This document shows positions 1-15,208 of a stretch of DNA of 64,000 nucleotides, piece after piece. Position numbers and translations under genes: made by a program. Origin of the DNA: Alphaproteobacteria bacterium (GTDB lineage Bacteria > Pseudomonadota > Alphaproteobacteria > JANQMY01); contig CBDDFL010000001.1 in NCBI GenBank assembly GCA_965227095.1, forward strand, positions 85,539 through 149,538, in the 5' to 3' direction. The stretch's first letter is position 1, and every line of letters starts with the position of its first letter. Under the pieces are notes generated by a model that saw only the letters and a program-made list of their open reading frames with translations, was not told the DNA's origin and did no database searches.

Positions 1-2
1 CC

Positions 3-413
3 CATCCTACCCACCTTCTCGACCAAATCCCGCAGGACCAGGAAATCGGTAGCGTTACGGCTGATGGCGCCTACGACACGCGCAAATGCCACGATGCGAT
101 TGCAGATCGCGGTGCCCATGCCGTCATCCCGCCCCGCAAGAACGCGAAGCCCTGGAAGACGATCACCGCCGGAGCCGTGGCGCGAAATGAGGCCCTGCGC
201 GCGGCGAAATACCTGGGCCGCGCGCTCTGGCGACGATGGAGTGGATACCACCGCCGAAGCCGCGTCGAGACAAAGATGCATTGTATCAAGTTGCTGGGCC
301 AGCGGCTCATGGCACGGGACTTCGATCGACAGGTCGCCGAACTCCAGGTCCGCATCGCCGTCCTGAACGGCTACACCGCGCTCGGAATACCCGTCACGGA
401 AGCTGTGGGATAA
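3..413 (+). CDS. IS5-family DDE transposase, C-terminal portion (5' end lies outside window)
   Basis: Frame-3 translation is open from the window edge: ...DGAYDTRKCHDAIADRGAHAVIPPRKNAKPWK...HRRSRVETKMHCIKLLGQRLMARDFDRQVAELQVRIAVLNGY... This is a typical IS5/IS903-group transposase C-terminus; stop at 411-413. Confidence 0.7.
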   Translation, partial: HPTHLLDQIPQDQEIGSVTADGAYDTRKCHDAIADRGAHAVIPPRKNAKPWKTITAGAVARNEALRAAKYLGRALWRRWSGYHRRSRVETKMHCIKLLGQRLMARDFDRQVAELQVRIAVLNGYTALGIPVTEAVG

Positions 414-562
414 GTCCGTCCGGGGAAAGGGGAACCTCGGCCTTAAGCCGATTTGTGCATCAGAGCCCTTGACACTAATAATTAGCTATCTATGTTTTTC
501 CCGGCGATGGTTCCCCGGAAGAGGAGCCGGATTTCATCGCTGCATCAAACTGGAGGAAATTC

Positions 563-1945
563 ATGTCACGGACAGCCAATTTGGCCGGCCCGCTCGCGTC
601 GGCGCAGGAGCAGCCCGCCTTCAACGAACATGCGGGAACCCTGCCGGACGGGACGGCATGGCTGATCCGCGTGCCCGAGAACTGGAATGGTCGACTACTC
701 AGGGATCTGGATTTCGCCAGCAACGTTTCGGTCGCGTCAGCGGTCCAGCGGTATGACGACCTGCTCGGTCGTGGCTATGCCTTCGCCGGGCTCGCCCGGC
801 ACCCGCTGCGCCTGTGGCAATACGATCCGCAGCGTGAAATCCTGAATCTACAAGCTGTTCAGGACATTTTCACGGACCTGGAGCGCGCTCCTGACATGGT
901 GCTGCAATACGGCTGTTCTGGCGGAGGGCTCGACAGCCTCGCTTCGGCCGAGGATTACCCGGACAGGATCGACGGTGCCGCCGTGCTTGCCGCCCATACG
1001 CCGGTCTGGATCATGAGCAGTTTCCTGGATGGCTGGTTCGCCATGCAGACCCTGCTGGGCGAAAGCTATGAGGCCGCTGGGCACGGTCCGGCCAGCGATC
1101 TCGCCATCGTCGGCCTGCCCAATGCCGGAGCGGGTGGCGAGCGCAGCCTTGACGCGATCCGTGCGTCCTGGATGGCCGCCATCGAAACGGCGGGCGAAAG
1201 CCCGGAGGGCCGCGCGCGGCTGGCGCTTGCCTTCGCCATCGGACAGTGGTCGCCGTGGATGGTCGAGGGGACCGAACTACCCGACACCGCGGATGCCGGC
1301 GCCATGGCCGACATGATCGTGGCCTCGGCGCTGCGCATCGGCGGTAATGTTGGCGGGTCCTCGCGGCTTCTGTTCGAAAACGCCGCATCGGGGCAGCAAC
1401 TTTCCGGGAACGAGGGGGTCGACTATGCCGCCTTCTACCAGAATGCCGCACCCGCGATGGCGCGGACGGTTGAGGCGCTCTACGAACAGGCCGGTTTGGA
1501 CCTTCAGGCCGACATTGCCAGGATCGACGCCGCCCCCCGCATCGCGGCCTCGGATTATGCGCGCGATTTCTGGGCCGCAGACGGGCGCACGACGACCGGC
1601 GATCTGCAGGTTCCGGCGATCCGCATCCACATGCTGGGCGACTGGGCCATTCCCTACACGCTGATGGAAGGCTACGGCGCGCTGGTGCAGGAGCAGGGTA
1701 CCGGCGATCTGTATCGGCAGTCGCTGGTCCAGGGCACGGGCCATTGCGAGTTCACGGCTGCCGAAAGCACGGCCATCGTCGAGACCCTGGTCGAACGGAT
1801 CGAAACGGGCGCCTGGCCCGAGACATCGCCCGAGGCGCTGAACGCCGCAGCCGAGGCGCTGGAAACCGGGAGCGCCCCCCGGTTCATCGAACACGGTGAT
1901 TGGCGCGTGGCAGCCTATAACCGGCCCTGGGTTCCGGCAGAATGA
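563..1945 (+). CDS. hypothetical protein, possible alpha/beta-hydrolase-like (G-C-S-G-G nucleophile-elbow-like motif)
   Basis: 460-aa ORF with coding-like composition; motif LQYGCSGGGLDS resembles GxSxG of serine hydrolases; no other family recognised. Confidence 0.5.
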   Translation: MSRTANLAGPLASAQEQPAFNEHAGTLPDGTAWLIRVPENWNGRLLRDLDFASNVSVASAVQRYDDLLGRGYAFAGLARHPLRLWQYDPQREILNLQAVQDIFTDLERAPDMVLQYGCSGGGLDSLASAEDYPDRIDGAAVLAAHTPVWIMSSFLDGWFAMQTLLGESYEAAGHGPASDLAIVGLPNAGAGGERSLDAIRASWMAAIETAGESPEGRARLALAFAIGQWSPWMVEGTELPDTADAGAMADMIVASALRIGGNVGGSSRLLFENAASGQQLSGNEGVDYAAFYQNAAPAMARTVEALYEQAGLDLQADIARIDAAPRIAASDYARDFWAADGRTTTGDLQVPAIRIHMLGDWAIPYTLMEGYGALVQEQGTGDLYRQSLVQGTGHCEFTAAESTAIVETLVERIETGAWPETSPEALNAAAEALETGSAPRFIEHGDWRVAAYNRPWVPAE

Positions 1946-2400
1946 GCCGATGGGGAACTGGCGCTGCGCCGGTTCCCCCACAGGTCCGGTGGCGCAAGTC
2001 ATTGGTGGACCGTCGCCAACGCGCAGTGGGCATCTCTGGCGAGGGCAAGTGTTCCCATGTCTGGACGACCCCTGCTGCGCAAGCTGGGAATTGACGCGCC
2101 TATGCCGAAAGCAGTCATGTCTACGGCCTTTGTGGTGCGGTCTAGCCGCTGGCCCAGATGAAGTCCGCGGATCGGGTCCCAATCAAAATTGCGCGCTTTC
2201 TGCGCCTTGACCCCCTGGGGTGTCCCGATCCCCGGTTCGACCGGTTTGTCATCTCTTCTCAGCTTCACGCATTCCGTCAGCGGTTCCGCGCTCAGGAGAC
2301 AGGGGCCGCGTAGATCTCGTTGCGGCGCAGGAGCGCCCAAGCGATCCGGGCAGTCTTGTTGGCGAGCGCGACCGCAACGACTTTCGGTCGCTTGCGTGCT

Positions 2401-2460
2401 TGTCGCGTTGCCCTTAAATCTGAGACACGACGCGTTCGGGGATATTTTTTGCCCTTAATT
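2401..2460. repeat. Left-end transposase-binding repeats (TTGCCCTTAA x2) incl. terminal IR
   Basis: tgtcgcgttgcccttaaatc at 2401-2420 and ttgcccttaatt at 2449-2460. Confidence 0.7.
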
Positions 2461-3306
2461 ATGAGATTCCACTGCCATCGCGCCTATGCTTTTCGCGCGC
2501 TGCCGGGCGATGTAAACAACCGCGGCAAGCAGACGTGGCTCCTTATCGAAGGCGCGCAATAGAGCAACCCTTGCATAGTCGTCGATGCCGGAGCTTGAGA
2601 TGGCCGCTTTGACCAGTGGACGGGATTGGGCTGCATCAATTGCAGCAAGGCCAAACAGCCTTACTTCCAGCCTGTGGCCCTGAAGAGCGTATAACGGATC
2701 TCCGCGGAAGGCCTTTAATGATATGGCAAAGGTGACCGCGCGCATTGCGCGCCGAAATTGCTTGGAGCTGCGTAATCGCGCGGCGTATTCAAGCCGCGCG
2801 GCGCCGTTGCGCGCACGATTTATCAGCTTTTCGGGCATCTGTTCGCCACTGGCCTTGCCGAGCGTCGGCACAAGTCTCGTCCCACAAACCTGGCAGTCGA
2901 ATGCCCAGGCTCGCCTCCAATGCTTGAGCGAAAGGCCCTCTCTGGAACATTGCAGGCAATGCTGGAATGGTATCTGGGCCGTCAGCGAGGCTTCTCGTGT
3001 CGTCATTGCTGGGAAGGTCAAAGATCGCACAACATCTGGGTCAATCCGTGCGGCGTTGGCAATCTTCGCCGCCGCAGCCGCGTCGACGTTGAAGTTCAAG
3101 GCGGTGCCATGCGCGGTATCGATTCTGAGATGAGCCAGTAGTTCCGCATCATCACAGTAGTTGGCCGCCGCCAGCCTAGACAACCAACCTGACAACAACT
3201 CGTCGGGCAGCGGCGCGACAGTCTTGGGCAGCGGGTGCGGCTTCACACCCCGGACTTCTCGAGCCGCCGATGGGGGTTCGCATGGCGCGACCAAACCGGC
3301 GTCCAT
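2455..3306 (-). CDS. tniQ: TniQ-family transposition protein
   Basis: N-terminus ...LPDELLSGWLSRLAAANYCD... plus Cys pairs (CLQC...CQVCG) are typical of the TniQ/TnsD domain; lies downstream of tniB, overlapping its end. Confidence 0.7.
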   Translation of the reverse strand: MDAGLVAPCEPPSAAREVRGVKPHPLPKTVAPLPDELLSGWLSRLAAANYCDDAELLAHLRIDTAHGTALNFNVDAAAAAKIANAARIDPDVVRSLTFPAMTTREASLTAQIPFQHCLQCSREGLSLKHWRRAWAFDCQVCGTRLVPTLGKASGEQMPEKLINRARNGAARLEYAARLRSSKQFRRAMRAVTFAISLKAFRGDPLYALQGHRLEVRLFGLAAIDAAQSRPLVKAAISSSGIDDYARVALLRAFDKEPRLLAAVVYIARQRAKSIGAMAVESHN

Positions 3307-4241
3307 TTTGCGATTGCGTCATCGGTGATGCATTCATCACCTGTGACAATGGCGTCGATGGAAAGATCCTTGATCAGGGCGAAGATGCGCGAGGTCACCC
3401 CGCCGGTCAGCGCAAGTATCTGCTTTAGTGACTTGACCTTCAGATTGGATTTCTTCTCGAGGGGCATTGCCGCGATGAGTGTCTGGATCATGTCCGAGAA
3501 CTCGGCGTCGTCGCGCCAGTTTGGAAGGTGATGTTCGTCCAGCCGCCTGGCAAGCTGGATATCACCACGGATGGCATCGACGGCCTCGCTGACCCCCAGG
3601 CAGACCAGCGACACTTCGAGTTCATTGCTGAGATACCGCAGAACATTGAGAAAGCGGCGCTGTTCGCGGTGGGTCCCGGCCAAGAGGTTGTGGACTTCGT
3701 CGATCATGATCATCCGCAGGCCAAGGTCGCGCAAGAGCGCGACGACACGGACTTCGAGGGAGGCCACATTTTGAGCGCGCGCGCTCAGTGCCGTGGCCGG
3801 TGCCCCGACGGTCGCCAGGATGTGCAGATAGAACCGTCGTTCGTCGGGAGCTGGTGGTGCTTGTAACAGTAACAGCGGCGTTCGCGTAATTCCCGATGCT
3901 GGGTCATATTCCGGTGCATATCTGCGCGAAAGATTGCGGGCGATCATCGTCTTTCCGATCCCGGACGCGCCATGCACAAGAAGGCCAGGCATACGGGTTT
4001 GCCTTGGCGCTTCGATCATACACTGCAAACGGTCCAGAACTTGTTCGGCCCGCGGAAAGCCAATCCAGATATCCGATTGAATGAGGGTGATCCGACCGTC
4101 TTCCTCTGTTTTTCCTGCCCTCAATTCACCATCTCTCCACCTTGAACAATGGGCGCGATGTATCACCCGTATCGATCGCGCGCAGCCCTTCGGTTGTTGA
4201 GACGGCCGAGTTGGCGCCCTCCAATGTCCCTTTTCTTTCAC
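3243..4241 (-). CDS. tniB: TniB AAA+ ATPase (transposition helper, TnsC-like)
   Basis: Walker A GASGIGKT and Walker B MIMIDEVHNLL; size and position after tniA. The annotated start overlaps tniA by 116 nt, so the true start may be an internal or non-ATG codon. Confidence 0.8.
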   Translation of the reverse strand: MKEKGHWRAPTRPSQQPKGCARSIRVIHRAHCSRWRDGELRAGKTEEDGRITLIQSDIWIGFPRAEQVLDRLQCMIEAPRQTRMPGLLVHGASGIGKTMIARNLSRRYAPEYDPASGITRTPLLLLQAPPAPDERRFYLHILATVGAPATALSARAQNVASLEVRVVALLRDLGLRMIMIDEVHNLLAGTHREQRRFLNVLRYLSNELEVSLVCLGVSEAVDAIRGDIQLARRLDEHHLPNWRDDAEFSDMIQTLIAAMPLEKKSNLKVKSLKQILALTGGVTSRIFALIKDLSIDAIVTGDECITDDAIAKWTPVWSRHANPHRRLEKSGV

Positions 4242-5775
4242 GGGATCGGCGTTCGGCCCTCGTCAGGCTCCGGCTTTCAGACTCGATTTGGCGTTGCTGT
4301 CGGATCAGCTCAGCCAGGACCAGCTCATTGGACCCGGACTTGCCAAGGGCACGGGCATTCCTCATGGCTTCGCGATATTCCCAGAGCGACACAGGCGGAA
4401 TTTCCAGGTTTCGGTACCGAGCTTCGACGTATCGGTCATTATCCAGTTCGACCCAGATCACCGAGAGGTCGCGAGGGTCGTAGCGGACGACCACCTTTCC
4501 ATCCCCGCGCCCGATGTGGCCTGCAAGCGCATCGGACCAGTACCGTATCTGGAACAGATGGATGCCGTCACGCCTGACCTTGCGCAGTTCACTTGGCAGA
4601 AAGCTCACCCGAAAGGCTTCAATCTCGAAGGGGATATCGCCCATCATTTGCTCTGAGAGCGCCTCCCATTTGGCAACGGGCGTGCAGCCAAGACTTGAAT
4701 GAATGCTGTTGTTGTAGCGGCAGATTTCCAGAGCAAACCAGCGATCGAAGTCGCTTAAGGTCATCGTGGCCATGCCCTCGGCGTCATAGTCGCCCTTGGC
4801 CACGACCGAGGATTGCGTTGTTCCAGGCAACAGGTGCACGGCCCCCATCATCGTGCCGATCAATCGTTCGATGTGCCCTCCGAAATGAGGACTGCCTGGC
4901 GGCCGATAGACCAGATCGATCCCCCATTCCGCACATGCCGACCGAAAGGCATGCGACCGGAAATCGCGCCCGTTATCGACGTGGATGCTATGCGGTTTAC
5001 CCTGCGCGGGCCAAGGAACATTGCGCACCAATTCCGCCAGAAGTTCCGCCTTGGGGGCCACAGCCTGTGTCAGGCAAAGCGCCACCGACAGACGCGAAGG
5101 TGCCTCGAGAGAGGTGTAATATCCGGTCACCATCCGCGTTGCGACGTCGATCGCCAGCGTGACCCAAGGCCGCCCAATTGGTTTGCGTTCAAAACTGTCG
5201 ACGAGAATGATGTCCGCAGGCGTATGGTCGATTTGCACGACCTCCAGTGGCCGGTTTGCCTTGTTGTCGCCTACGACCGGCGCAAATTTCTGGCGGGCCG
5301 CCTTTGCGCCTTCGCGTGCCTTGGCAATTTCACGGGCATCCATTGCATCCAGCCTGCGCTGAACCGTCCGACGTGTCGGCGGTTGCAAGCCCTGCTGCCA
5401 GCACGCGCTTCGGATTTCTGTCACGATGCGCGACAGGCTTGGGCGTTCCCGCCGTAAGAAATAACGGCGAAGATGTTCTTCGATCACCGCTTCCACCTTG
5501 CCGGATATCAAGGTTGTACCAGTCGGGCGGCCCCGTTTCCGAGAAGCCAGCGCGCTGGTGCGCCCACCCTCTTCGGCCAGACGCTTTATCCAGCGCCAGA
5601 CAGTCGCCCTGCTGACACCAAGCTCCCAAACGGCGTCATTGATGCCACTTTCCAGACTGCCAGTTCCTTTGAGATATGCCTGAACAAGCGGACGCAGAAC
5701 GGCCGCCCTGCGCGCCTCCTCAGCACCAGCGGCAACGAAGTCTTCGCGATCATCATCCATCAATATTTGCCACAC
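4126..5775 (-). CDS. tniA: TniA DDE transposase (Mu/TnsB-like, rve integrase core)
   Basis: N-terminal HTH region, then integrase core ...VVQIDHTPADIILVD...WVTLAIDVATRMVTGYY...HVDNGRDFRS... (D, D, E spacing typical of the TnsB/TniA/MuA family). Confidence 0.85.
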   Translation of the reverse strand: MWQILMDDDREDFVAAGAEEARRAAVLRPLVQAYLKGTGSLESGINDAVWELGVSRATVWRWIKRLAEEGGRTSALASRKRGRPTGTTLISGKVEAVIEEHLRRYFLRRERPSLSRIVTEIRSACWQQGLQPPTRRTVQRRLDAMDAREIAKAREGAKAARQKFAPVVGDNKANRPLEVVQIDHTPADIILVDSFERKPIGRPWVTLAIDVATRMVTGYYTSLEAPSRLSVALCLTQAVAPKAELLAELVRNVPWPAQGKPHSIHVDNGRDFRSHAFRSACAEWGIDLVYRPPGSPHFGGHIERLIGTMMGAVHLLPGTTQSSVVAKGDYDAEGMATMTLSDFDRWFALEICRYNNSIHSSLGCTPVAKWEALSEQMMGDIPFEIEAFRVSFLPSELRKVRRDGIHLFQIRYWSDALAGHIGRGDGKVVVRYDPRDLSVIWVELDNDRYVEARYRNLEIPPVSLWEYREAMRNARALGKSGSNELVLAELIRQQRQIESESRSLTRAERRSRERKGTLEGANSAVSTTEGLRAIDTGDTSRPLFKVERW

Positions 5776-5797
5776 GAAGCTGCGAACCCTGTCTCAG

Positions 5798-5906
5798 GTT
5801 TAAGGGCAAAAATATCGGATTTAAAGGCAAAATATCATATTTAAGGGCAAAGCAAGGCCGTTGATTTCGTTGGATTTCTCATCTCACAATTAAGGGCTAC
5901 GCGACA
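5798..5906. repeat. Right-end transposase-binding repeat array (TTAAGGGCAAA-like x4) incl. terminal IR
   Basis: gtttaagggcaaaaat (5798), ttaaaggcaaaat (5821), ttaagggcaaagc (5841) at ~20-bp spacing, then caattaagggctacgcgaca ending at 5906. Confidence 0.7.
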
Positions 5907-5925
5907 CCGGGGCTTCGGCACCCGC

Positions 5926-6963
5926 ATGCTCAACGACTATGAAATCGCGAATGGCATGGTTCAACCAGCCCGCGCCTATGCTCTGTTTGAAAATGCGTGG
6001 CGCAACAAACACGGCCTCTCTCGAGACCAGCATCGCGCCCTGATCGGTGAATTGTTCGCCCCCTTTTCCGAGGTGGCGGCTCAAAATCCGTATGCGCAGT
6101 TTAGAGAAGCACGAACGCCGGACTATCTGGCAACACCGTCGGATGGGAACTTTGAGCTGGTAGACCCCTATCTGAAATGGCATGTGGCGCAGGATTCCGT
6201 AAACCAGGGCGCCGCCGTCATCCTGACCTCGGTCGCCAAAGCGCGAGAACTTGGCATTCCGGAAAGCAAATGGGTGTACCTGCATGGCTATTCCGACGCC
6301 TATGACCGGTTGGTAACCGCCCGCCGCGATTTCACCCGGTCAAACGCCATGCATGCAACGGTGAGCGAAGGCTTATCCACGTCCGGACGCACGGTCGATC
6401 AGATCGACCATTTTGAGATCTACAGCTGCTTTCCCTGCGCGGTGCTCTTTGCCTGCGATGCCTTGGGAATCGATTGGCGCCAGCACCAACTGACGCAAAC
6501 AGGCGGCCTTCCCTTCTTTGGCGGCCCCGGCAACAATTACAGCATGCATGGTATTGCCGCCATGGTGGAAAAATTGCGCGCCCATCCCGGCGACACGGGA
6601 CTGGTCCTCGCCAATGGGGGCTTTTTGACGAAGGAAGCCGTTGGGGTTTATTCGACCAGCCCGCAAGCGGATTGGACACCGAACCGCCGCAAGCAAGCCC
6701 AAGCGGAGGTGGACCGCGATGCCGAAATGCCCGTTTTTGAAACGCCGACCAGTGGAACGGTTGAAAGCTTCACGGCCTTCTACAAAAAGAAGGAAGCCTA
6801 TTCCGGTATGATCACCGGGCTGTCAAACGGTCAACGTTTCATGGCGCGCGTAGGCCAAGAAGATATGCGGACATTGCAAGAGCTTGTGTCCGGCGATCCC
6901 ATCGGCAAGCCTGTGACCGTTGAGAAGACCGACAAGGGCAACACGTTCCATCTCAGCTCTTAA
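5926..6963 (+). pseudogene. Thiolase-family protein, apparently 5'-truncated (about the N-terminal 130-150 aa incl. catalytic Cys missing)
   Basis: The translation matches the central and C-terminal parts of thiolase-like proteins (GAAVILTSVAKARELG, GxG-rich C-terminal domain). The ORF begins only 20 nt from the transposon terminus. No N-terminal thiolase segment is found on the other side of the element. Confidence 0.45.
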
Positions 6964-6971
6964 ACGCTCAT

Positions 6972-8081
6972 TCAAGACGCGCGCGCACCGTCGCCCAAAA
7001 ACCAGTTCATAATTTTCGCGTTTTCTTCGCGCGGATAGGTGTGGGACAGATCCGCCACTTCGCTGTAGGTGACATCGGCCCCCGCCGCCAACAACGCCGC
7101 CTGTGCCGTGCGGGCAATGTCGACCGGGAACATCCAATCCCACGCGCCGTGCACCAAATAAACGGGAAGGTTTTTAATGCGTCCCGGATCCATCATCTCC
7201 AGCAACATGGGGTGGAAGGCAGCGGATATGGGGGCGAGATGGGTGAAGGGCGACTCTTTTCTCAGTCCACTGACATATGAAAACGTGCCGCCATCGCTCA
7301 TGCCGGTGAGCAGCAACTTCTCGCGATTGATATTCCAACGCCCACACACTTGTTCCAGAATGTGATCCAGATTTTCGCTGTCGATATCCGGCCCCATCAG
7401 CGACCACGTATCGCCCCGCGAAGTGGGGCTGACAAGGATGGCGCCGTTTGTGCGGGCCGTGTTGAGCCAGGTCCATAAAAACCCGCGACCATGGCCCGAG
7501 CCCCCATGCATGGCCATGATCAACGGATAGGATTGAGTCTCGTCATAAAATTCGGGCACATAGATCGAACAACCGCCACGCTGATCCCGGCCATTTTCCG
7601 CATGCAGGACGCCCACATTGTCGCGGCCCGCATCCGCGTTATCGAGACGCGCAATCAGGTCGGCATCGCCCTGCCGCTCGTGATCGAGATAAAACTGGCT
7701 GACCGGCGGCAGCGTGGACGCGACCGGGTACAGAACTTCCACCGCGCGGGTATAGCGGCGCAAGGCGCGATAGGCGGCCATGGCACCATTTGGATCGGTC
7801 GCCGCGCCGCGCAACCCGTCGAACGCCTGACACGCCGCCTCGGCGGACTTGGCCACCCGGTCTTTGAAGGGGACCAATCCCTCTGGCCATTGTGCTGATT
7901 GAAAGCCTGGCAGCTTGGCGCGCAGATCCGCATCGATATCGCCCACATTCGCCATCACCTGATCCAGCCGGGGAGGGTGTAAGTGCCGCGCCACGAAGCC
8001 GAGCGCTTCCAGGCAGTTCAATAAAGGCGGAAGAATTTCGGAAATGGTCTCGAGCAGGTCTTCCGATGGTTTTTCACTCAT
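6972..8081 (-). CDS. alpha/beta-hydrolase esterase (PHB-depolymerase/carboxylesterase-like)
   Basis: Nucleophile elbow GMSDGG and HGG-type oxyanion region MAMHGGSG; 369 aa. Confidence 0.7.
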   Translation of the reverse strand: MSEKPSEDLLETISEILPPLLNCLEALGFVARHLHPPRLDQVMANVGDIDADLRAKLPGFQSAQWPEGLVPFKDRVAKSAEAACQAFDGLRGAATDPNGAMAAYRALRRYTRAVEVLYPVASTLPPVSQFYLDHERQGDADLIARLDNADAGRDNVGVLHAENGRDQRGGCSIYVPEFYDETQSYPLIMAMHGGSGHGRGFLWTWLNTARTNGAILVSPTSRGDTWSLMGPDIDSENLDHILEQVCGRWNINREKLLLTGMSDGGTFSYVSGLRKESPFTHLAPISAAFHPMLLEMMDPGRIKNLPVYLVHGAWDWMFPVDIARTAQAALLAAGADVTYSEVADLSHTYPREENAKIMNWFLGDGARAS

Positions 8082-8208
8082 ATGGTCCGCTTCCAGATCC
8101 GCCCGTCAACATGAGCCCCCACCATACGCCTTTACAATCGCCCCGTCATGTTTACATGTTTGTCGCCCACAAATCGCATCGTTACCCAACGTCATATCGA
8201 GCATAGAA

Positions 8209-9015
8209 ATGAGATCATCTGTCTTGAAGCTCGTCGAGCGCGACGATTTTAAGAACCTCGTCACCCTGGTCGTGGTGATCAACGCCGTCACCTTGGGATT
8301 GGAAACCTGGCCCTTTGCCATGAACCGCATCGGCGGTCTACTGCGTATTTTGGACACACTGGCAATCTCTATCTTCGTTGTCGAGATCGGCCTCAAACTG
8401 TTCGCCTATCGCTTGAGCTTCTTCCGGTCCGGATGGAATGTGTTTGACTTTGTCATTGTGGGCGTTGCGCTTGTGCCGTCCGCCGGCGCGTTTTCCGTGC
8501 TGCGTACCTTACGGATTTTGAGGGCCCTGCGCTTATTATCCGTAGTGCCCCAAATGCGCGCGGTTGTGGGCGCGCTGCTGGGCGCGGTGCCGGGCATGGG
8601 TGCGATCGTCGCGGTGTTGTTGTTGGTGTTTTACATTGCCGCCGTCATGGCAACGAAATTGTTCGCCGCAACGTTTCCGGATTGGTTCGGCAGCGTCCCC
8701 TCTTCCATGTACACGCTGTTCCAAATCATGACGCTGGAAAGCTGGTCCATGGGGATTGTCCGCCCTGTGATGGACGTACACCCCTGGTCCTGGGTGTTCT
8801 TTGTCCCCTTCATTATCGTCACCAGTTTCGCCGTTTTGAATCTGTTCATCGCCTTGATTGTGGATTCCATGCAAGCCATGCACGCCTTCGAGGACAAAGA
8901 AGATGCCGATAAGAAAGAGGCCGTCGCCCATCGCGAGCGAGAGGCCCTGATGGCGGAACTGCGCGCCGTTCGGGCGGAATTGGCGGAACTCCGCGATACC
9001 TTAAAGAATGCCTAG
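8209..9015 (+). CDS. Bacterial voltage-gated sodium channel (BacNav, NavAb-like)
   Basis: Six TM segments, S4 voltage sensor RTLRILRALRLL, selectivity filter FQIMTLESWSMGIVRPVM (TLESWSM as in NavAb/NavMs), C-terminal coiled-coil. Start set at the internal ATG 8209 giving a 269-aa protein. Confidence 0.85.
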   Translation: MRSSVLKLVERDDFKNLVTLVVVINAVTLGLETWPFAMNRIGGLLRILDTLAISIFVVEIGLKLFAYRLSFFRSGWNVFDFVIVGVALVPSAGAFSVLRTLRILRALRLLSVVPQMRAVVGALLGAVPGMGAIVAVLLLVFYIAAVMATKLFAATFPDWFGSVPSSMYTLFQIMTLESWSMGIVRPVMDVHPWSWVFFVPFIIVTSFAVLNLFIALIVDSMQAMHAFEDKEDADKKEAVAHREREALMAELRAVRAELAELRDTLKNA

Positions 9016-9094
9016 ATAAAGGCGTTGATCTAGATCATCGCTGGCAGGCGGCGCGGTCTTCTAAAACAGGCTTGTTAGCTATAGGAGAAGAGAA

Positions 9095-9313
9095 ATGGTT
9101 GGAACAACCGAACTTGTAAGGGGGCATGTGGATGCGACGCTAAAAGCTGCCGACGAACACAAAATCCCCCATGACAGCGTGGCCCGCGCCATGATGTCCC
9201 TGGCGATTGAGATTTTTCTCAAGGAACGGTCTCCGGATGACGTCAAAAGCGAACTGGAATATATGATCAGCAACGTGGTGAGCGACGAAGACCAAGAATT
9301 TATGCGGCCCTAA
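9095..9313 (+). CDS. small hypothetical protein (72 aa)
   Basis: Preceded by an AGGAGAAG Shine-Dalgarno; acidic small ORF; no family recognised; 3' end overlaps the convergent LysR gene by 14 nt. Confidence 0.35.
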   Translation: MVGTTELVRGHVDATLKAADEHKIPHDSVARAMMSLAIEIFLKERSPDDVKSELEYMISNVVSDEDQEFMRP

Positions 9314-10181
9314 GCCGGAAGTTTTCGGTCAAGTGATCCAGAAACACACGCACCTTCAACGGTAAAAACGCCCGGTGGGCGTAGAGTGCCCGAATGGTGA
9401 GGGTCCGCTGGGCCCCACCAAACGGCAGTTGGACCAAGCGCTTGGCGCGCACATCCGTCGCCACAAAGAAATCAGGCAAAAAGGCAATCCCGGCACCCTC
9501 AAGGGCCAGGCGCCTCAACCCATCACCACTTGAGCACCGCACGGCCCACGCCGGGACGAACCCTCGGCCGGACATTTCCCAGTCCGTTATGCGCGTGCCT
9601 TGCGCGAAGACCAAGCAGCGATGCTGCGTCAGGTCCCGCTTTGAGGCGGGTGTGCCGTACTTCTTCACGTAAGCAGGGCTCGCGAAATAGCCATGCCGCG
9701 TCTCATCTATGGCGCGGCCAATCAGATTGCTTTCCATATCGCCGCCGACCCGGATGGCCACATCAATGCCCTCTTCCACCAGATCCACAAATCGGTCCGT
9801 GAGGTCCAGTTCAAGGCGCAATTGAGGAAAAGCGTCCAAGAAATCAGGCAACAACGGCGCAATCGCGAATTGGCCATAGGAGACCGGCGCGCTTATCCGC
9901 AACACCCCGTGCGGTTTTGCCGATTGTTCGGCAAGCGCGTCTTCAGTGGTGGCGATCTGTTCGAGCACGCTGCGCGCATGGTCTAGATACAGACGCCCTG
10001 CTTCCGTCAAACTGTTTCGCCGCGTGGTACGATTGAGAAGACGCGTCCCAAGATGGTCTTCCAGTGACGCAATCTGTTTGCTCACAACCGGCTTTGACAG
10101 GTTCAGCTTGCGGCCTGCGGCGGCGAAGCCACCTTCCTCTTCGACCGCCACAAACGTCTTCATGGCGCGCAAAACATCCAT
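9300..10181 (-). CDS. LysR-family transcriptional regulator
   Basis: MDVLRAMKTFVAVEEEGGFAAAGRKLNLSKPVVSKQI... wHTH plus LysR substrate-binding domain. Start chosen at the MD... codon (10181); the ORF extends to 10211. Confidence 0.85.
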   Translation of the reverse strand: MDVLRAMKTFVAVEEEGGFAAAGRKLNLSKPVVSKQIASLEDHLGTRLLNRTTRRNSLTEAGRLYLDHARSVLEQIATTEDALAEQSAKPHGVLRISAPVSYGQFAIAPLLPDFLDAFPQLRLELDLTDRFVDLVEEGIDVAIRVGGDMESNLIGRAIDETRHGYFASPAYVKKYGTPASKRDLTQHRCLVFAQGTRITDWEMSGRGFVPAWAVRCSSGDGLRRLALEGAGIAFLPDFFVATDVRAKRLVQLPFGGAQRTLTIRALYAHRAFLPLKVRVFLDHLTENFRLRAA

Positions 10182-10477
10182 CAGTTTGTTTCCCTTTGAC
10201 AAACAAAACACAGCAAATACTTCCCATTGTTACTCCATCCGCGAATCCATTGCCATTTGGGGGCGTTTCCGCGTTAAGATATAGCGTCACAGCAGCGATT
10301 CTTTGCAAAACACTCGGTTTCGCGAGATCCGCAGTGACTTGACGGGCGATAAGAAAAACAAAAATGCCCGTGGGGGACAGTGATGGACATTCGAATTGAT
10401 TTCACACTAGTGGAACGTATCGCCGAAGGACCTGCTTCGGTCATTTGGTGTACGCGCATCTCTAACAGAAAGACATT

Positions 10478-11260
10478 ATGACCGATCTCTTATTGACTGA
10501 CATTCAAGACGGCATCGCCACACTGACCATCAACCGGCCGGAAAAGAAAAACGCCATGACCTATGCGATGCTCATGGAGTTTACGGAACTTGTCGGCACA
10601 CTCGGGCAAAATCCGGATGTCCGTGTTCTGATTATTACCGGCACGCAAGGGGCATTTTGTGCCGGAACCGACCTTGCGGATCTCGCGACCGTTCCCGGCA
10701 AAGAACGCGGGCTCCGAGGAAGCGCTGAAGAAAAACACCGGTGGTGGCCCATTGTGGAATGCCCCGTTCCGGTCATCGCGGCCATTGATGGTCCCGCCGT
10801 TGGCATGGGGGCCGAATTTTCCAGCCAATGCGACATTCGATTGGCGTCTTCCAATGCCCGTTTTGCTTGGAACTTCGCACAGCGAGGATTGGTGCCTGAT
10901 ACCGGCGCCGGATCTTGGCTACTGCCTCGCTTGATCGGGCATTCAAATGCCTTGCGTCTGCTGTACACGGCCGACTTCATCTCCGCCGAAGAAGCGCTTG
11001 ATCTTGGTTACCTTCACCAAGTTCTTCCGTCCGAAGACCTCTTGCCGGCGGCCAACGCGCTGGCCCAGAAAATGTTGCAAAGCTCGCCCTTTTCGTTACG
11101 CCGCATCAAATCCCTCGTCTACGAAGGCATGGGCAGTCACGTGGACGATCATATGCAGCGCCATACGCAAGCCATGTCGGAATGTTTCAAAAGTGATGAT
11201 CACGCTGAAGGCGTCGCCTCCTTCTTGGAACGCCGCCCCGCCAAATTCTCCGGCACCTAG
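10478..11260 (+). CDS. enoyl-CoA hydratase/isomerase (crotonase family)
   Basis: ITINRPEKKNAM..., GAFCAGTDL, VIAAIDGPAVGMG motifs; divergent from LysR. Confidence 0.85.
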   Translation: MTDLLLTDIQDGIATLTINRPEKKNAMTYAMLMEFTELVGTLGQNPDVRVLIITGTQGAFCAGTDLADLATVPGKERGLRGSAEEKHRWWPIVECPVPVIAAIDGPAVGMGAEFSSQCDIRLASSNARFAWNFAQRGLVPDTGAGSWLLPRLIGHSNALRLLYTADFISAEEALDLGYLHQVLPSEDLLPAANALAQKMLQSSPFSLRRIKSLVYEGMGSHVDDHMQRHTQAMSECFKSDDHAEGVASFLERRPAKFSGT

Positions 11261-11296
11261 ATCGATTTTGCCTTCTGCCGCTCAGGATACCAGACA

Positions 11297-13168
11297 ATGA
11301 CACGACATCTCCGCGAGACCTTTTTTCTATCAACGCTGTGCGCTGCTCTGGGTGCTTTGTCTGTTCTGACTGTGGCACCGGTGCAGGCAAACCATATCTT
11401 CCTCAGCACAACAATGTGTACCAAGGCGGACAATCGCGACCCACATACGTTAGAAACGGTTTACGCGCGGCCTGACCAAGCCGCCCCCTGCCGGGTGTAC
11501 CATACAAAACAAGGCCTACGCCGCCAGGTGGGCAGCGGCAACAACACCCCCCCTGGGGCCAAGAGTTGCGAATCTATCGAAAAGAACATTCTCAACAATC
11601 TCAAGGTCGGCGGTTATCAGTGCACGAATAATGTAAGCGCCGCCGGAGAAGGCCCTCATCACGATGTCTCGTCCTTGGTCGGGCGCACAGCAGCAGACCA
11701 TGGGCGCTATGCGGTCCTTATTGATGCCTTCAAAACGGAGGACGATGCGCAAATTTTCGCCGCCGGCATTAAGCGCATGCTGCCGCTTGTTCCTGTTCAT
11801 ATCCGCAAACTTACACAAAGTGGCCTGCCCTTTTCCGTTTATGCGGGCGCCGAGGCCTCAGAAGATGGGGCACGCGCTTTAGTCGAGAAAATAGGGGCGG
11901 CCGCATCCCCCGACGGACAGGTGCTCGATCTGTTCGCCCCCTTTGGCAGCAAAATTGCGGCGGACTGGCAACGATATGCCGTGGCTTCTTGTTTCCATCA
12001 GGGGCACGAAACACAGCGCGCCATGGCCCATTGCTCCGGTTTGGTCGTGGATGCAACACAGCTGACCTCGTGCCTAAATGGCGGATTGTGCAGGCCGCCA
12101 CAACTTGCCCCGATTTCGGGCACGCCCCTTAGCTCGGTGCCGGAACGAGCCCTGATCGAACAACCTTGGATCGGCGACCAAATTGCCGCCTGTGACGCAA
12201 ACGCCGAAGATGGAAACGTCACGGAATGCGGTATCAACCTGATGCTATCCGCGGATCAGCGCAAAATGCTCAGCTGCAGCCGCAGCTCGGAAACAGAAGC
12301 CGACGCGCTGGCCTGTATGGCGGGTCCGCGTCTTGGTCCGACCGAAAAGAAAATGCTCACCTGCCTACAGAACAATGACGGCACGGCGCCCATGTCCACG
12401 TGCCTCATGACCGATTATGCCGCCGCCGACAGCCGCGCGGTAACCACATGTTTCGACAACCGGACAACGGAAACCTTTGCCTCCTGTATCGCAACAAATG
12501 TCAGTGCCGTGACCGATCAGCGCGTTACCGAGTGCGCCCAAAAATCAGACAACGATCCTATCGCAACCGGTTTGTGTGCGGCGGAATTCTACCTCACGGC
12601 CCGTCAACGGCAGACTCTTGAGTGTTGGTCGCAAACGTCGTCGCTGACGGCTTTTGGTGTCTGTACATTGGGAAGCGATTTAGGCTTTTCGGCCTCTGAT
12701 CAGCTTGTCGCAACCTGTGCCGCCACATCGAAAGGCGACATTCACACCTTTGCGATGTGCGCCGGAGGCAGCCTGACCTTACGGGAAATGAAAGTATGTT
12801 CTGAAACCCCCGAAGATGTGCGCGCCGCCTGTTATCAAAGCGACAGCGCCATGACGGCGTTTTTGGACAGCACGCCGAAAGACCCGAATGCCGGTTTGAA
12901 GCCCACAAGCAAAATCATGGAGCAACGGGTGTCTGTGCTTGGGACCCCTGCCGTTCAAGAAAAAATCGAGCAGGTGGCTCAGGAAGAGCCATTGGTTGAC
13001 ACGGAAGCAACCGGCGCGCTACAGGCGGACCCCGCAATGGGGCCCGTGTTGGACGACAGTGCACCGCCTCCCCTGGTAGAGGTGCCCAACCCTCAGACCG
13101 AAATACCAAACGAGGTCACGCCGCCTCCAACAGTCGCAGAGGATGTTTTCCATCAACCATCCCCATAA
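11297..13168 (+). CDS. Secreted protein with SPOR-like domain followed by about 13 Cys-containing short repeats and a Pro-rich tail
   Basis: Signal peptide MTRHLRETFFLSTLCAALGALSVLTVAPVQA. Region YAVLIDAFKTEDDAQIFAAGIKRML...FSVYAGAEASEDGARAL resembles SPOR. Repeats of the form (M/V)(L/T)xC every about 12-14 aa (MLSCSRS, MLTCLQN, MSTCLMT, VTTCFDN, FASCIAT, VTECAQK, TLECWSQ, FGVCTLG, VATCAAT, FAMCAGG, MKVCSET). C-terminal PPPLVEVPNPQTEIPNEVTPPP. Confidence 0.7.
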   Translation: MTRHLRETFFLSTLCAALGALSVLTVAPVQANHIFLSTTMCTKADNRDPHTLETVYARPDQAAPCRVYHTKQGLRRQVGSGNNTPPGAKSCESIEKNILNNLKVGGYQCTNNVSAAGEGPHHDVSSLVGRTAADHGRYAVLIDAFKTEDDAQIFAAGIKRMLPLVPVHIRKLTQSGLPFSVYAGAEASEDGARALVEKIGAAASPDGQVLDLFAPFGSKIAADWQRYAVASCFHQGHETQRAMAHCSGLVVDATQLTSCLNGGLCRPPQLAPISGTPLSSVPERALIEQPWIGDQIAACDANAEDGNVTECGINLMLSADQRKMLSCSRSSETEADALACMAGPRLGPTEKKMLTCLQNNDGTAPMSTCLMTDYAAADSRAVTTCFDNRTTETFASCIATNVSAVTDQRVTECAQKSDNDPIATGLCAAEFYLTARQRQTLECWSQTSSLTAFGVCTLGSDLGFSASDQLVATCAATSKGDIHTFAMCAGGSLTLREMKVCSETPEDVRAACYQSDSAMTAFLDSTPKDPNAGLKPTSKIMEQRVSVLGTPAVQEKIEQVAQEEPLVDTEATGALQADPAMGPVLDDSAPPPLVEVPNPQTEIPNEVTPPPTVAEDVFHQPSP

Positions 13169-13367
13169 AGGGCGGATAGACGGAATACCCCACCAAGGCC
13201 TGAAGGTCCGGAGATAGGCCACGCACTGTTTCCTTGGACAACTCCAGCAAATAGTTTTCCTGTTGGCGCATATAGGCCTCGCAATATTGATGCGTCACAC
13301 CGAAACGCGGAGCCGTGGACATGTTTTCACCGCCGCCGTGCCATGTGGTGCCGAGAAAGAAGATCAC
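13116..13367 (-). pseudogene. Possible C-terminal remnant of a PhyH-family dioxygenase
   Basis: 83-aa ORF beginning FFLGTTWHGGGENMS (resembles the xFHxxTxHGSGxNxS region of phytanoyl-CoA dioxygenases); no upstream remainder present. Confidence 0.3.
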
Positions 13368-13455
13368 GGAACCGGCAGAAAGATGGCATGCCGGTAGCCC
13401 TCGACAGGCACATCTTTCGATTGAATAAAACGATTAGCCACACCATAATGTTGGC

Positions 13456-13869
13456 ATGAGCCGCCTTGTGGAAATCGCGACCTTCTATGACCCCGAAGAA
13501 GCCTATTGCGCCCAAGCGGCAGTGCGATCCGGGGGGTGCTATAGTATTCTGTATAATGAACACCATTTAGGTGTCGCGCCGGCCCTGCGCATCGGCCTAG
13601 AAGGGTTTCGATTGATTGTCCTGGAACAAGACGCCGCGGACGTGCGCAACGCCCTAAACGGGTACATGGATGACGCTGTCGCGGAAATTCAGAACGCACC
13701 ACTTCCGGAGACCGGCCGGACAAAACGAAAAAACTGGTTTTGGTTTCCGGTCGCCCTGGCAACCGCCGTTCCGTTTCTGCCATCCTACAGCTCACGAAAC
13801 GTTCTTATCGGCCAGATACTGGTGTCTCTGCCATTCTATTTCATCATACTGGCCAGCCTGGCCTCTTAA
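13456..13869 (+). CDS. hypothetical membrane protein (DUF2007-like N-terminal domain + C-terminal TM)
   Basis: N-terminal VEIATFYDPEEAYCAQAAV...GFRLIVLEQDA pattern and C-terminal hydrophobic helices. Confidence 0.5.
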   Translation: MSRLVEIATFYDPEEAYCAQAAVRSGGCYSILYNEHHLGVAPALRIGLEGFRLIVLEQDAADVRNALNGYMDDAVAEIQNAPLPETGRTKRKNWFWFPVALATAVPFLPSYSSRNVLIGQILVSLPFYFIILASLAS

Positions 13870-13940
13870 CGCCATCTGATATTGCAGTTCTTCTCTACTT
13901 CGCCTAAAGTGATGCCAAACAGAATGTTGGAGGCGAGACA

Positions 13941-15005: not shown

Positions 15006-15208
15006 AAAAACTATTCTTAAGTCGCAAAAGCAATACTTGAAAATGCGCCATTTTTTACCAATTCACCTTCAATGAAACGGTTGGCGTTAACATAAAAAAC
15101 AGAATTATGCCCTTAGAAGCGCCCTTTACTCTATAAATACTTTACTTTGAGAAGCTGATCGGAAATAGAATACCCGTTATAACGCGTAAGAGTTCGATCG
15201 GTTCCCAA

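Follow-up and report, generated by a model that had tools for sequence, protein, structure and literature searches.

The window, that is, the whole 64-kb stretch of DNA analysed here, carries a transposable element consisting of tniA, tniB and tniQ. Its gene neighbours are IS remnants, an uncharacterised 460-aa gene, a thiolase-like gene, a hydrolase, an ion channel, a LysR regulator and an enoyl-CoA hydratase. The features of the locus are the following, with the tniQ-proximal and tniA-proximal termini named the Q end and the A end, respectively.

1..413, plus strand: 3' remnant of an IS5-family transposase gene, identical to L002 9660-10252; the fuller copy in L138 carries PF01609/PF13737
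563..1945, plus strand: 460-aa gene, passenger of a compound structure, flanked by element copies in L139, L141, L142 and L138
2292..2400, minus strand: IS110-family transposase gene truncated to a 3' fragment by the Q end, its translation ending in ALANKTARIAWALLRRNEIYAAPVS and a stop
2401..5906, genes on the minus strand: complete TniABQ element of 3506 bp, with identical ends in full-length matches elsewhere and flanks that diverge right outside both ends
2401..2425, plus strand: terminal inverted repeat of the Q end, TGTCGCGTTGCCCTTAAATCTGAGA, starting with 5'-TGT
2408..2468 (2408-2427 and 2448-2468), plus strand: two subterminal repeats of about 19 bp, putative TniA binding sites
2455..3246 (reading frame open to 3306), minus strand: tniQ, most likely 263 aa from GTG at 3246
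3243..4124 (reading frame open to 4241), minus strand: tniB, AAA+ regulator, 293 aa from TTG at 4124
4126..5760 (reading frame open to 5775), minus strand: tniA, DDE transposase, 544 aa from ATG at 5760
5790..5901 (about 5790-5809, 5811-5830, 5831-5851 and 5882-5901), minus strand: four subterminal repeats of about 19 bp
5882..5906, minus strand: terminal inverted repeat of the A end, matching the Q end at 22 of 25 positions
5907..6963, plus strand: thiolase-like (TLP1-type) gene cut by the A end (PF18313/PF22691), lacking about 160 N-terminal codons

The first-pass annotation had described termini starting with TGT and identical at 15 of 17 positions; the TGT starts stand, but the inverted repeat is 25 nt long and complementary at 22 of them (2401-2425 against 5882-5906). 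At three or fewer mismatches, the two ends themselves are the sole matches to this repeat in the window, against 0 expected. The 2 plus 4 subterminal sites reported earlier were found again, with TTAAGGGCAA-type sites at 2408 and 2449 in the Q end and at 5800, 5821, 5841 and 5890 in the A end, and a single further site, with 1 mismatch, elsewhere in the window. Relatives keep this layout at their ends (offsets 9/50 and 9/58/78/99), and their 3.2-kb body holds merely one or two repeat matches, counting both strands. By their likeness to the Tn402 and Tn7 ends summarised in PMC8649781, these repeats may be TniA binding sites. Apart from the terminal sites, one 12-bp repeat was the only tandem repeat in window positions 1-14000.

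The non-coding ends of the element, 54 bp and 146 bp, are occupied by the terminal repeats and thus leave no space for a res site. The element consists of three genes only, without tniR or res, as do its relatives, and no further reading frame with a family match that could represent tnsA was found inside or beside it. Neither a resolvase, tnsA, a cas gene nor a CRISPR array was present within 5 kb to the right or the available 2.4 kb to the left, and no Cas12k or Cascade genes were found inside or beside the element. The earlier description of a unit without cargo, resolvase and TnsA is correct for these 3.5 kb.

Proteins and distribution of the element

TniA matches rve, Mu-transpos_C and HTH_Tnp_Mu_2 in Pfam, with D178, D262 and E298 as candidate catalytic residues; it matches TnsB in the PDB at 1e-41 to 2e-36 and is 38.8-40.6% identical (E 1e-89 to 1e-110) to annotated plasmid tniA genes of the Tn402/Tn5053 type. 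TniB matches PF05621 at 3.5e-58 and VchTnsC at 1.2e-11, and contains the Walker A motif GASGIGKT and the Walker B motif MIMIDEVH. The lengths of TniA and TniB are those of the public annotation. TniQ matches PF06527 at 1.1e-8, and the initial calls of tniA (DDE), tniB (AAA+) and tniQ are thus upheld by Pfam. The most likely start of TniQ is GTG at 3246, because nearly all of 193 homologue clusters have a length of 263 aa; the 283 aa first assigned to it could not be maintained. TniQ comprises a TniQ core and a distinct helical C-terminal domain (residues 139 to 254), with invariant Cys at 97, 100, 118 and 121. The pN/pS ratios range from 0.09 to 0.34 across the three genes (tniA 0.19, tniB 0.09), and purifying selection acts on all of them.

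The IS21 family (IstA/IstB) was considered for its pairing of a DDE transposase with an AAA+ helper and was rejected, as the IstA model NF033546 gave 31.5 bits against a cut-off of 160. The scores of the IS481, IS3 and IS630 models were also far below their cut-offs.

The same 3506 bp, with identical ends and 99.9-100% identity, occur in at least 17 plasmid records among the matches listed, from the five genera Phaeobacter, Celeribacter, Salipiger, Thioclava and Roseibium, at 2-5 places per plasmid. The scan of joints yielded 47 different joints at the Q end and 74 at the A end. In some draft genomes the element forms a high-coverage 3.5-kb contig of its own (for example, coverage 862 versus about 180), and internally deleted mini derivatives of 239-685 bp were found at different sites. 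In the public collection, 1509 blocks are indexed as containing exactly this TniQ protein, and the three-gene layout of 3.5-3.7 kb persists to a TniQ identity as low as 28%; at both 57-62% and 28% identity of TniQ, relatives show it without TnsA, resolvase or res, and the nearest outgroups have a TniQ of about 390-400 aa and a serine recombinase. Minimal TniABQ units, which had been called unusual, are not so in this lineage. The element is an intact, currently spreading, autonomous unit of 3.5 kb and is ordinary in kind.

Insertion joints and the window copy

Among the 44 full-length copies for which both flanks could be read, 1 carries a 5-bp duplication; of the 7 mini derivatives, none does. 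The window copy has none, the adjoining 5 bp being gtgct and ccggg as reported earlier, and this lack is the rule for the element's family and no oddity of the window copy. Both joint types share a target preference (Q/A), namely C at -4 (0.70/0.66), G at -2 (0.62/0.66) and A/T at -8 (0.87/0.75), in a sample in which plasmids are over-represented and joints are shared by descent. The midpoint of a 5-bp stagger is the axis of symmetry of this pattern, which corresponds to a weakly preferred pentamer, N-C-W-G-N.

Two further observations, together with the symmetric pentamer, support a 5-bp stagger. An ATCGC duplication is split between two copies on the Celeribacter plasmids pP73B and pP73C, and joining the Q-side flank of pP73B to the A-side flank of pP73C with ATCGC once restores a continuous DsbD reading frame. 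Furthermore, a chromosomal copy (L153) is flanked by a perfect CCCGC duplication in an otherwise intact phyR / HWE-kinase / nepR / ecfG locus; unrelated pairs of Q and A joints match at all five positions at a rate of 0.54%, and this duplication on its own could be due to chance. Insertion preferentially beside res sites in one orientation was not observed, as a resolvase was the main flanking reading frame at 3 of 110 joints and a tyrosine recombinase at 2, the other flanking genes being diverse.

The same joint was found paired with differing partner joints, and one passenger segment is bordered by several different Q joints and two A joints. Element-segment-element structures exist, as does an 8.3-kb x3 tandem array, and independent joints are clustered, in a single orientation, in one 450-bp stretch of an IS110 gene. 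In two complete Celeribacter plasmids, a partner was found for only 1 of 10 joints, and the cointegrate signature was not found on plasmid pP75_b or in the L139 compound. From the joint pattern alone, one cannot tell whether transposition was replicative or whether copies were first inserted simply and then underwent homologous recombination with one another.

In the window, the Q end adjoins the truncated IS110 gene beside the 460-aa gene, and the A end adjoins the truncated thiolase-like gene. Genes are thus cut on both sides, where the first-pass annotation had rightly noted the thiolase but had recorded this one truncated neighbour only. The IS110 fragment is identical in DNA to L002 up to L002 position 12117, where the gene continues, and a longer fragment matches PF02371 at 2.1e-26. 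Window positions 586-2401 are 99.9% identical to plasmid copies, the window copy lacking about 57 bp near the 5' end of the 460-aa gene, whose sole family match is a sub-threshold one to Tannase. The loss of the 5' thiolase segment is seen by comparison with full-length homologues of about 511 aa and with an intact syntenic locus (L154), in which the break lies at A|CCGGG. Upstream of window position 1, at a distance of 153 or 995 bp, every one of the 21 informative loci (21 of 21) has an A end. A further element end is thus almost certainly to be expected just outside the window, which would make the window copy most likely the right arm of a structure in which two elements enclose the IS5 remnant, the 460-aa gene and the IS110 remnant. 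The distant third end that had been named as a possible objection is therefore predicted to exist and to delimit a larger compound, while the autonomous unit is still 3.5 kb.

A proposed replicative scenario and its alternatives

Considering these results, we think it probable that the element belongs to the Tn5053 clade of the Tn7 superfamily as an IS-like member that transposes replicatively and lacks a resolvase, and that cointegration, adjacent deletion and recombination reshuffle its joints, much as with IS26. Tn5053/Tn402 transpose replicatively and their cointegrate is resolved by TniR/res (PMC7765201), and for TnsA-less clades that have no resolvase, host recombination, possibly by recA, or a resolvase in trans has been proposed (PMC8649781). 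From homology and anatomy, we infer the following replicative steps, as well as the relative weight of transposition and homologous recombination in the shuffling of joints. TniA may bind the 2 + 4 terminal repeats and bring both ends together, and target DNA may be presented by TniB with TniQ. Strand transfer would then link both 3' ends to the target with a spacing of 5 bp, at the weakly preferred symmetric N-C-W-G-N. Because there is no TnsA, the 5' ends would stay uncut and the event would have to be finished by replication, giving two copies that each combine an old joint with a new one. Replicon fusions and adjacent deletions or inversions would result, and since there is no TniR/res, such products could be resolved by host recombination only. 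A matching duplication would consequently be found on hardly any single copy, and other DNA would come to lie between pairs of copies, as with IS26. The two joints of the window copy probably stem from two separate events, and the initial suggestion of transposon-mediated deletion or recombination between copies agrees with the partner-swapped joints, the split ATCGC and the loss of about 160 thiolase codons.

RecA should eventually resolve cointegrates, with their 3.5-kb direct repeats, into duplication-flanked insertions, and 1 of 44 is lower than such a model predicts. The frequency of duplications is not fully explained by a simple replicative model.

The element might instead insert simply, by cut-and-paste or with efficient resolution, leaving 5-bp duplications that are later erased by RecA recombination between identical co-resident plasmid copies. 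Copies that are 100% identical and sit at 2-5 places per plasmid are ideal substrates for recombination, the whole-flank exchange that such a history predicts was seen, and L153 is a clean duplication-flanked chromosomal copy. However, the element has no TnsA-like gene for cutting the 5' ends, and recent insertions should mostly be flanked by duplications, which 1 of 44 were; duplications are also absent from records with a single copy (L004, for instance, has the element at 1 place per record) and from the mini copies of 239 bp, which offer little substrate for recombination. We therefore regard this history as unlikely.

A second alternative, in which a larger Tn5053-like transposon lost tniR, res and cargo by deletion and decayed into a non-autonomous element that is passive on plasmids, might be suggested by the resolvase and longer TniQ of the nearest relatives outside the family and by a neighbourhood full of truncated insertion sequences. 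This reading is largely refuted, and we give it hardly any credence, as the exact ends recur in more than 100 sequence contexts, the 3.5-3.7-kb layout is conserved to 28% TniQ identity under purifying selection on all three genes, the element is multi-copy in single genomes, and mini derivatives at several sites imply working machinery in trans. It also seems very improbable that TniQ directs the element to an attachment site, a res site or an RNA-specified target and that the window copy is an aberrant insertion. TniQ proteins do have a targeting role in Tn7, CRISPR-associated transposons and Tn5053 (PMC8649781, PMC7765201), and several independent joints lie in the 450-bp IS110 stretch in one orientation. 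Those joints are, however, equally well explained as nested adjacent deletions, and the 47 + 74 distinct joints, the weakness of the pentamer preference, the diversity of flanking genes and the absence of nearby cas genes and CRISPR arrays argue against guided insertion. The replicative scenario is thus preferred.

A broader reading may be offered tentatively. The element could represent a distinct and abundant three-gene, IS-like family of the Tn7 superfamily, the transposition of which is essentially always replicative and unresolved, and which fuses, deletes and amplifies plasmids in marine Rhodobacterales as an IS26 analogue with components of the Mu/Tn7 type. Targets would be picked by its short TniQ, whose C-terminal domain is helical and in part HTH-like, under a rule other than res, an attachment site or a guide RNA. 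If this is true, much of the mosaic structure of roseobacter plasmids, laden as they are with metal resistance, can be put down to one 3.5-kb element, as can the identical DNA blocks on unrelated replicons of different genera. A naturally minimal TniA-TniB-TniQ system with defined ends, without guide RNA, TnsA or resolvase, is a convenient model for what TniQ and the AAA+ regulator do alone and for the fate of TnsA-less strand-transfer products, which is relevant to engineered V-K CRISPR-associated transposons. For annotation, target-site duplications are not to be expected at copies of this family, and boundary finders based on them will miss the element.

Comparison with known systems

TnsB-like, TnsC-like and TnsD/TniQ-like proteins between ends with arrayed sites place the element within the broad definition of Tn7-like transposons (PMC8649781), although it lacks the TnsA endonuclease of the heteromeric cut-and-paste transposase of Tn7 proper. 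In the survey of Benler et al. (2021), tnsA is missing from branches of clades 2 and 3, and 4% of the Tn7-like elements are without cargo (PMC8649781). Tn7-like transposons without TnsA and resolvase are the same general category as the element; the survey gives no account of its family, near-universal lack of duplications, target pentamer or compound structures (PMC8649781). The type V-K CRISPR-associated transposons (TnsB-TnsC-TniQ, no TnsA) differ in having Cas12k, a CRISPR array and a guide RNA, whereas the element has an extra helical C-terminal domain of about 120 residues in TniQ and dispersed insertion sites.

The element is most readily compared with Tn5053/Tn402, the 'res site hunters' (tniABQ-res-tniR). 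Its TniA is 39% identical over about 90% of the length, and the TniB family, the N-terminal domain of TniQ, the 25-nt TGT ends with arrayed subterminal repeats and the 5-bp stagger are shared; both lack TnsA, so that replicative transposition is expected (PMC7765201). In contrast, the element has no tniR, res or cargo, its targets show no enrichment of res or resolvase, and its 263-aa TniQ is shorter than that of Tn5053/Tn402 (about 390-405 aa), with the first 115 or so residues alignable (hhalign E 3e-5, 3e-4). Tn5053/Tn402 typically have 5-bp direct repeats, which are missing in 43 of 44 full-length copies of the element.

Phage Mu (MuA/MuB) may also be compared. The element's TniA has the Mu-transposase C-terminal and I-gamma domains, and both systems have an AAA+ partner, a stagger of 5 bp and a symmetric preference for a target pentamer, the Mu target consensus being N-Y-G/C-R-N; cointegrates, adjacent deletions and inversions are the expected replicative outcomes. 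Unlike Mu, the element is no phage, has TniQ and has ends of Tn402-type architecture.

IS26 and the IS6 family have one IS6-type DDE transposase and 14-bp ends, unlike the three Mu/Tn7-type proteins and multi-site ends of the element, and the element is not known to perform a conservative 'targeted' reaction. The likeness lies in behaviour only: IS26 is small, has no resolution system, usually lacks duplications at single copies, brackets passenger DNA with direct copies as pseudo-compound transposons, and gives rise to tandem amplification and plasmid mosaics, and in these respects the element resembles it.

Anatomy of the TniABQ element

A 25-nt inverted repeat, the arms of which agree at 22 of 25 positions, bounds window 2401–5906, and at up to three mismatches the terminal repeat has exactly two matches in the whole 64-kb window, where none is expected. 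Two TTAAGGGCAA-type sites lie inside the left end and four inside the right end, where the array was detected by Tandem Repeats Finder with a period of 20; elsewhere in the window one such site occurs, at one mismatch. The interior consists of three overlapping minus-strand genes with no fourth gene, and the non-coding ends of 54 bp and 146 bp are occupied by the repeats, leaving no space for a res site.

2401–2425, plus strand: terminal repeat of the Q (tniQ-proximal) end, TGTCGCGTTGCCCTTAAATCTGAGA, with its inverted partner at 5882–5906, the A (tniA-proximal) end
Element interior, minus strand: tniA, with rve, Mu-transpos_C and Mu I-gamma domains
Element interior, minus strand: tniB, PF05621 at 3.5e-58
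Element interior, minus strand: tniQ, PF06527 at 1.1e-8

TniA contains the candidate catalytic residues D178/D262/E298, TniB the Walker A and Walker B motifs, and TniQ four invariant cysteines. Against a 94%-identical copy, pN/pS was 0.19 for TniA, 0.09 for TniB and 0.34 for TniQ. The NCBIfam search returned no usable family names for the element genes, and the G+C composition profile did not set the element apart from the DNA on either side. The first-pass annotation had placed here a tniA–tniB–tniQ element with 2 plus 4 sites, devoid of resolvase, res and tnsA and flanked by differing pentamers without a duplication, all of which was borne out (the 5 bp outside the ends read gtgct and ccggg). 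The matched TGT ends that it described also stand, but the repeat is 25 nt, not 17 bp, long.

Distribution, target choice and missing duplications

In a megablast search against plasmids, 71 records matched, 52 of them with one place covering at least 80% of the query, and the whole 3506 bp was present at 99.9–100% identity in 17 of the records listed, from Phaeobacter, Celeribacter, Salipiger and Thioclava (Rhodobacterales) and Roseibium (Hyphomicrobiales). Plasmids often carried two to five places; identity ended precisely at the TGT termini, and the flanks varied among records. A terminal-pattern scan of one genome per species yielded at least 118 stretches, with at least 47 distinct Q joints and at least 74 distinct A joints, a joint being the border of the respective end with flanking DNA. 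In several draft genomes the element formed a separate 3.5-kb contig with several-fold coverage, and the exact TniQ protein was indexed in 1509 blocks of a public assembly collection, chromosomes included. The 2+4 layout was kept in relatives at the same offsets and restricted to the ends, in agreement with the first-pass expectation for other copies. Internally deleted derivatives of 239–685 bp retained both ends and occupied different sites, which implies mobilisation in trans. The element is a real, active and widespread unit with exactly these ends.

Gene-free, MITE-like 239-bp derivatives with both ends occurred in two Seohaeicola sp. 4SK31 loci (L029, 5819–6057; L105, 137–375) and in a Marivivens MAG (L113, 2154–2392), at three different sites, none with a duplication; the L113 copy was inserted among the terminal repeats of another element. 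Larger mini derivatives of 347–1784 bp were found in loci L114, L033, L031 and L115. Terminal-pattern matches also occurred in MAGs labelled Acidobacteriota, Akkermansia, Luminiphilus and Gammaproteobacteria (L014, L046, L057 and L098), which may reflect transfer beyond Alphaproteobacteria, although these contigs are probably mis-binned Rhodobacterales plasmid fragments; L057 has the same IS110 joint as the window. In Celeribacter indicus plasmid pP73B (L131/L132), inverted copies at record positions 88577–93822 and 121131–124636, with Q ends inward, enclose a stretch of approximately 27 kb with copper and cytochrome-c maturation genes; an ISL3 element interrupts the left of the two copies. 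A copy in plasmid pP73C of the same organism is interrupted by IS21 and adjoins a mer operon lying outside its ends.

The joints were dispersed. When the largest ORF at each of 110 distinct joints among the matches listed was scanned against Pfam, the genes were diverse, including transporters, metal ATPases, regulators and some transposases; a resolvase was found at three of these joints and Phage_integrase (tyrosine recombinases) at two. Because resolvases are rare beside the joints and the ORFs are diverse, the element does not qualify as a Tn5053-like res hunter. No attachment site was seen near the element, nor was any cas gene or CRISPR array, remnants of which the first-pass annotation had suggested seeking.

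In a census of every copy with both flanks readable, an exact 5-bp duplication was found in 1 of 44 distinct full-length copies and in none of seven internally deleted copies; its absence is a family trait. In C. indicus, however, ATCGC ends the Q-side flank of a pP73B copy and begins the A-side flank of a pP73C copy, and fusing these flanks with a single ATCGC gives a continuous DsbD frame into the thioredoxin-like C-terminus. This was the sole match among 97 within-genome pairs, with 0.09 expected. The chromosomal copy L153 has CCCGC on both sides within an otherwise ordinary phyR/HWE-kinase/nepR/ecfG locus, a duplication that, taken alone, could be chance given that unrelated joint pairs match at 0.54%; a search of metagenomes for its empty site gave no exact match. 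Among the distinct joints in the matches listed, Q and A joints showed, read towards the element, the same preference for C at −4 (0.70 and 0.66, respectively), G at −2 (0.62 and 0.66) and A/T at −8 (0.87 and 0.75), that is, a pentamer N-C-W-G-N symmetric about its centre. The split duplication, the L153 copy and the symmetric preference show two-ended insertion with a 5-bp stagger, and each joint thus looks like a product of the transposase, the two joints of one copy stemming from different events.

GGCAT, shared by the Q joint of L155 and the A joint of L006, was rejected as a third split duplication, as the flanks are non-contiguous and belong to different IS5 paralogues in opposite orientations. 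A short perfect palindrome in an IS5 copy, GGCATGTTCATGCC (L006 6507–6520), is the site of the A joint common to L006, L007, L009, L073 and L138. In pP75_b, a Q joint within a paralogous IS5 also has GGCAT, as at the L006 A joint; this sharing is probably coincidence plus target preference. A cross-genome reading-frame test on pentamer-matched joints gave 133 codons for the true pair against a null 95th percentile of 143, the test being non-discriminating in such G+C-rich DNA.

The two flanks of the window copy

On Phaeobacter and Celeribacter plasmids, DNA adjoining a different copy of the element is 99.9–100% identical to window 1–2400, except that the window lacks approximately 57 bp near position 590. 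This segment and its right-hand borders comprise the following features.

Segment content: a 460-aa gene between two transposase-gene fragments, an IS5-family 3′ remnant on the left and an IS110-family 3′ part on the right
Window 563–1945 (10222–11661 in comparison locus L002): the 460-aa gene, with a sub-threshold Tannase hit as its sole family match
Q-end positions right of the segment: three in the IS110 gene (the window's included), the sister element's own Q end in the same gene, and two inside the sister

An A end (…TTAAGGGCTACGCGACA) lies upstream of the equivalent of window base 1 in all 21 loci with enough sequence, at a distance of 153 bp in 10 loci and 995 bp in 11. To the right, Q ends of the element or of a 79%-related sister occur at no fewer than six positions, in one orientation throughout, and complete element–segment–element structures are present in L139, L141 and L142. 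Judged from the sequences, these nested joints would most simply represent adjacent deletions that encroached on the segment from the arm on each side. The long-read contig L138 (ENA ERZ26692762, contig ctg76608; 1–19939) contains three tandem 8.3-kb units that recur at an interval of exactly 8300 bp, every unit comprising the 460-aa gene, IS110 remnant, sister tniQ fragment, full element and IS5 copy; it may represent either an amplified array or a multimeric 8.3-kb circle.

The sister, of approximately 79% DNA identity and with the end TGTCGCCTTGCCCTTAAATCCGAGACA, lies in the same IS110 gene (L002 12538–15506; L138 2516; L140 2516–4105); its copies on plasmids of Phaeobacter and Celeribacter are cut short by the IS5-like ISRhba5, and in other loci the main element is inserted into the sister's tniQ or tniB. 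The stretch of 19 codons missing from the window's 460-aa gene and found in plasmid copies includes a signal-peptide-like hydrophobic segment at the N-terminus (…RSRTGMVVLCLALTAGFAPLASA…). In the public collection, 204 blocks, mainly 2–5-kb contigs, list the shortened product.

On the right, the A end cuts a thiolase-like gene whose full-length homologues are approximately 511 aa, confirming the truncated neighbour noted previously. Window 5906–15334 is syntenic with the intact locus L154, whose protein is 94% identical, the break falling at A/CCGGG (the slash marks the joint). L154 has two P450 genes upstream of the thiolase gene; the window lacks the 5′ 480 bp of that gene and the upstream genes. 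The partner Q joint, predicted to read …GAAGACCGGG/TGTCGCGTT (CCGGG/TGTCGCG...), was not found, its sole match, L156, having an unrelated flank and likewise no duplication. The truncated thiolase was not on record in an exact-protein look-up, and the right flank had no match among plasmids. P450 genes at window 22028–23093 and 41430–42143, with 66–77% DNA identity to the L154 pair, are paralogues and do not represent the missing upstream DNA.

Separation of joints and relation to known elements

TnsA-defective Tn7 and V-K elements only nick the 3′ ends, and insertion is completed by replication. By analogy with these and with Tn5053/Tn402 (PMC7765201), the present element, without TnsA, would nick only its 3′ ends and complete insertion by replication, each event yielding two copies with one old and one new joint apiece and leading to replicon fusion, adjacent deletion or inversion. 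The Tn5053 cointegrate is resolved by TniR at res (PMC7765201), and Benler et al. considered that TnsA-less elements without a resolvase would need a resolvase in trans or host recA (PMC8649781). In a family without TniR and res, the products would seldom be tidied up. The data fit such an element, but with RecA presumably available this accounts for the scarcity of duplication-flanked copies only in part.

Among the matches listed, copies with a common joint on one side bear different joints on the other. This pattern alone fits either replicative transposition or homologous recombination between identical copies, and probably both act. A fresh cointegrate signature was explicitly sought in pP75_b and L139 and was seen at neither: the two direct copies 38 kb apart in pP75_b have inner joints CCAGG and GGCAT, with no common pentamer, and the outer joints of the element–segment–element structure in L139, CCGTG and ACGGG, show no duplication that would mark compound transposition. 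The first-pass proposal of transposon-mediated deletion or recombination between copies is supported by the one-sided sharing of joints, the split ATCGC and the loss of 480 bp from the 5′ part of the neighbouring thiolase-like gene.

The literature on TniQ in Roseobacter/Rhodobacteraceae and on tniABQ yielded no description of the element, coverage being incomplete and large surveys possibly including it silently. The kind of element is familiar; what stands out is that duplications are almost universally absent, that the pentamer is symmetric, that compound and tandem structures occur and that spread across genera has been very recent. It likely drives plasmid mosaicism in marine Rhodobacterales and is a useful natural minimal system.

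Against solved TnsB structures, TniA matched those of type I-F CAST (~1e-41), type V-K (2e-36) and Tn7 (7e-16), and it is 38.8–40.6% identical over approximately 90% of its length to annotated Tn402/Tn5053-type TniA, against 28% for the staphylococcal Tn552-type transposase; TniB matched Tn6677 TnsC at 1.2e-11. The nearest outgroups among those compared retain the canonical four-gene module. On an E. coli plasmid it consists of tniA, tniB, a 387-aa tniQ and tniR and adjoins mer genes; on an Ancylobacter plasmid its TniQ measures 398 aa and is accompanied by a serine recombinase. The element's TniQ could be aligned to both outgroup TniQs over the first 60–115 residues only (hhalign E 3e-5 and 3e-4). 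Its family is small, with 313 representatives (E ≤ 0.001) in a search of 1.84 billion proteins and lengths of about 260 to 345 aa for complete members. Neither the single sequence nor the profile had a sequence match among solved structures. An AlphaFold2 model from a shallow alignment was unusable (pLDDT 56), and that from a deeper alignment reached pLDDT 90.7 and pTM 0.84. Its best structural matches were all TniQ/TnsD proteins; the model thus indicates a genuine, mid-sized TniQ with a C-terminal domain of its own. The identity and intermediate size assigned in the first-pass annotation therefore hold, but the length is 263 aa, that of almost all homologues, rather than 283 aa. The three-gene, resolvase-less layout of 3.5–3.7 kb with the same kind of ends recurs in L128 and L129 (57–62% TniQ identity) and in L158, a 3703-bp element with 28% TniQ identity.

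The element qualifies as Tn7-like in the broad sense. It resembles Tn5053/Tn402 in strand-transfer machinery and ends. TniR/res and res targeting, both defining in the Tn5053 family, are absent, and in a third defining feature, the canonical TniQ, the agreement is only partial. Its likeness to IS26 lies in the consequences of transposition.
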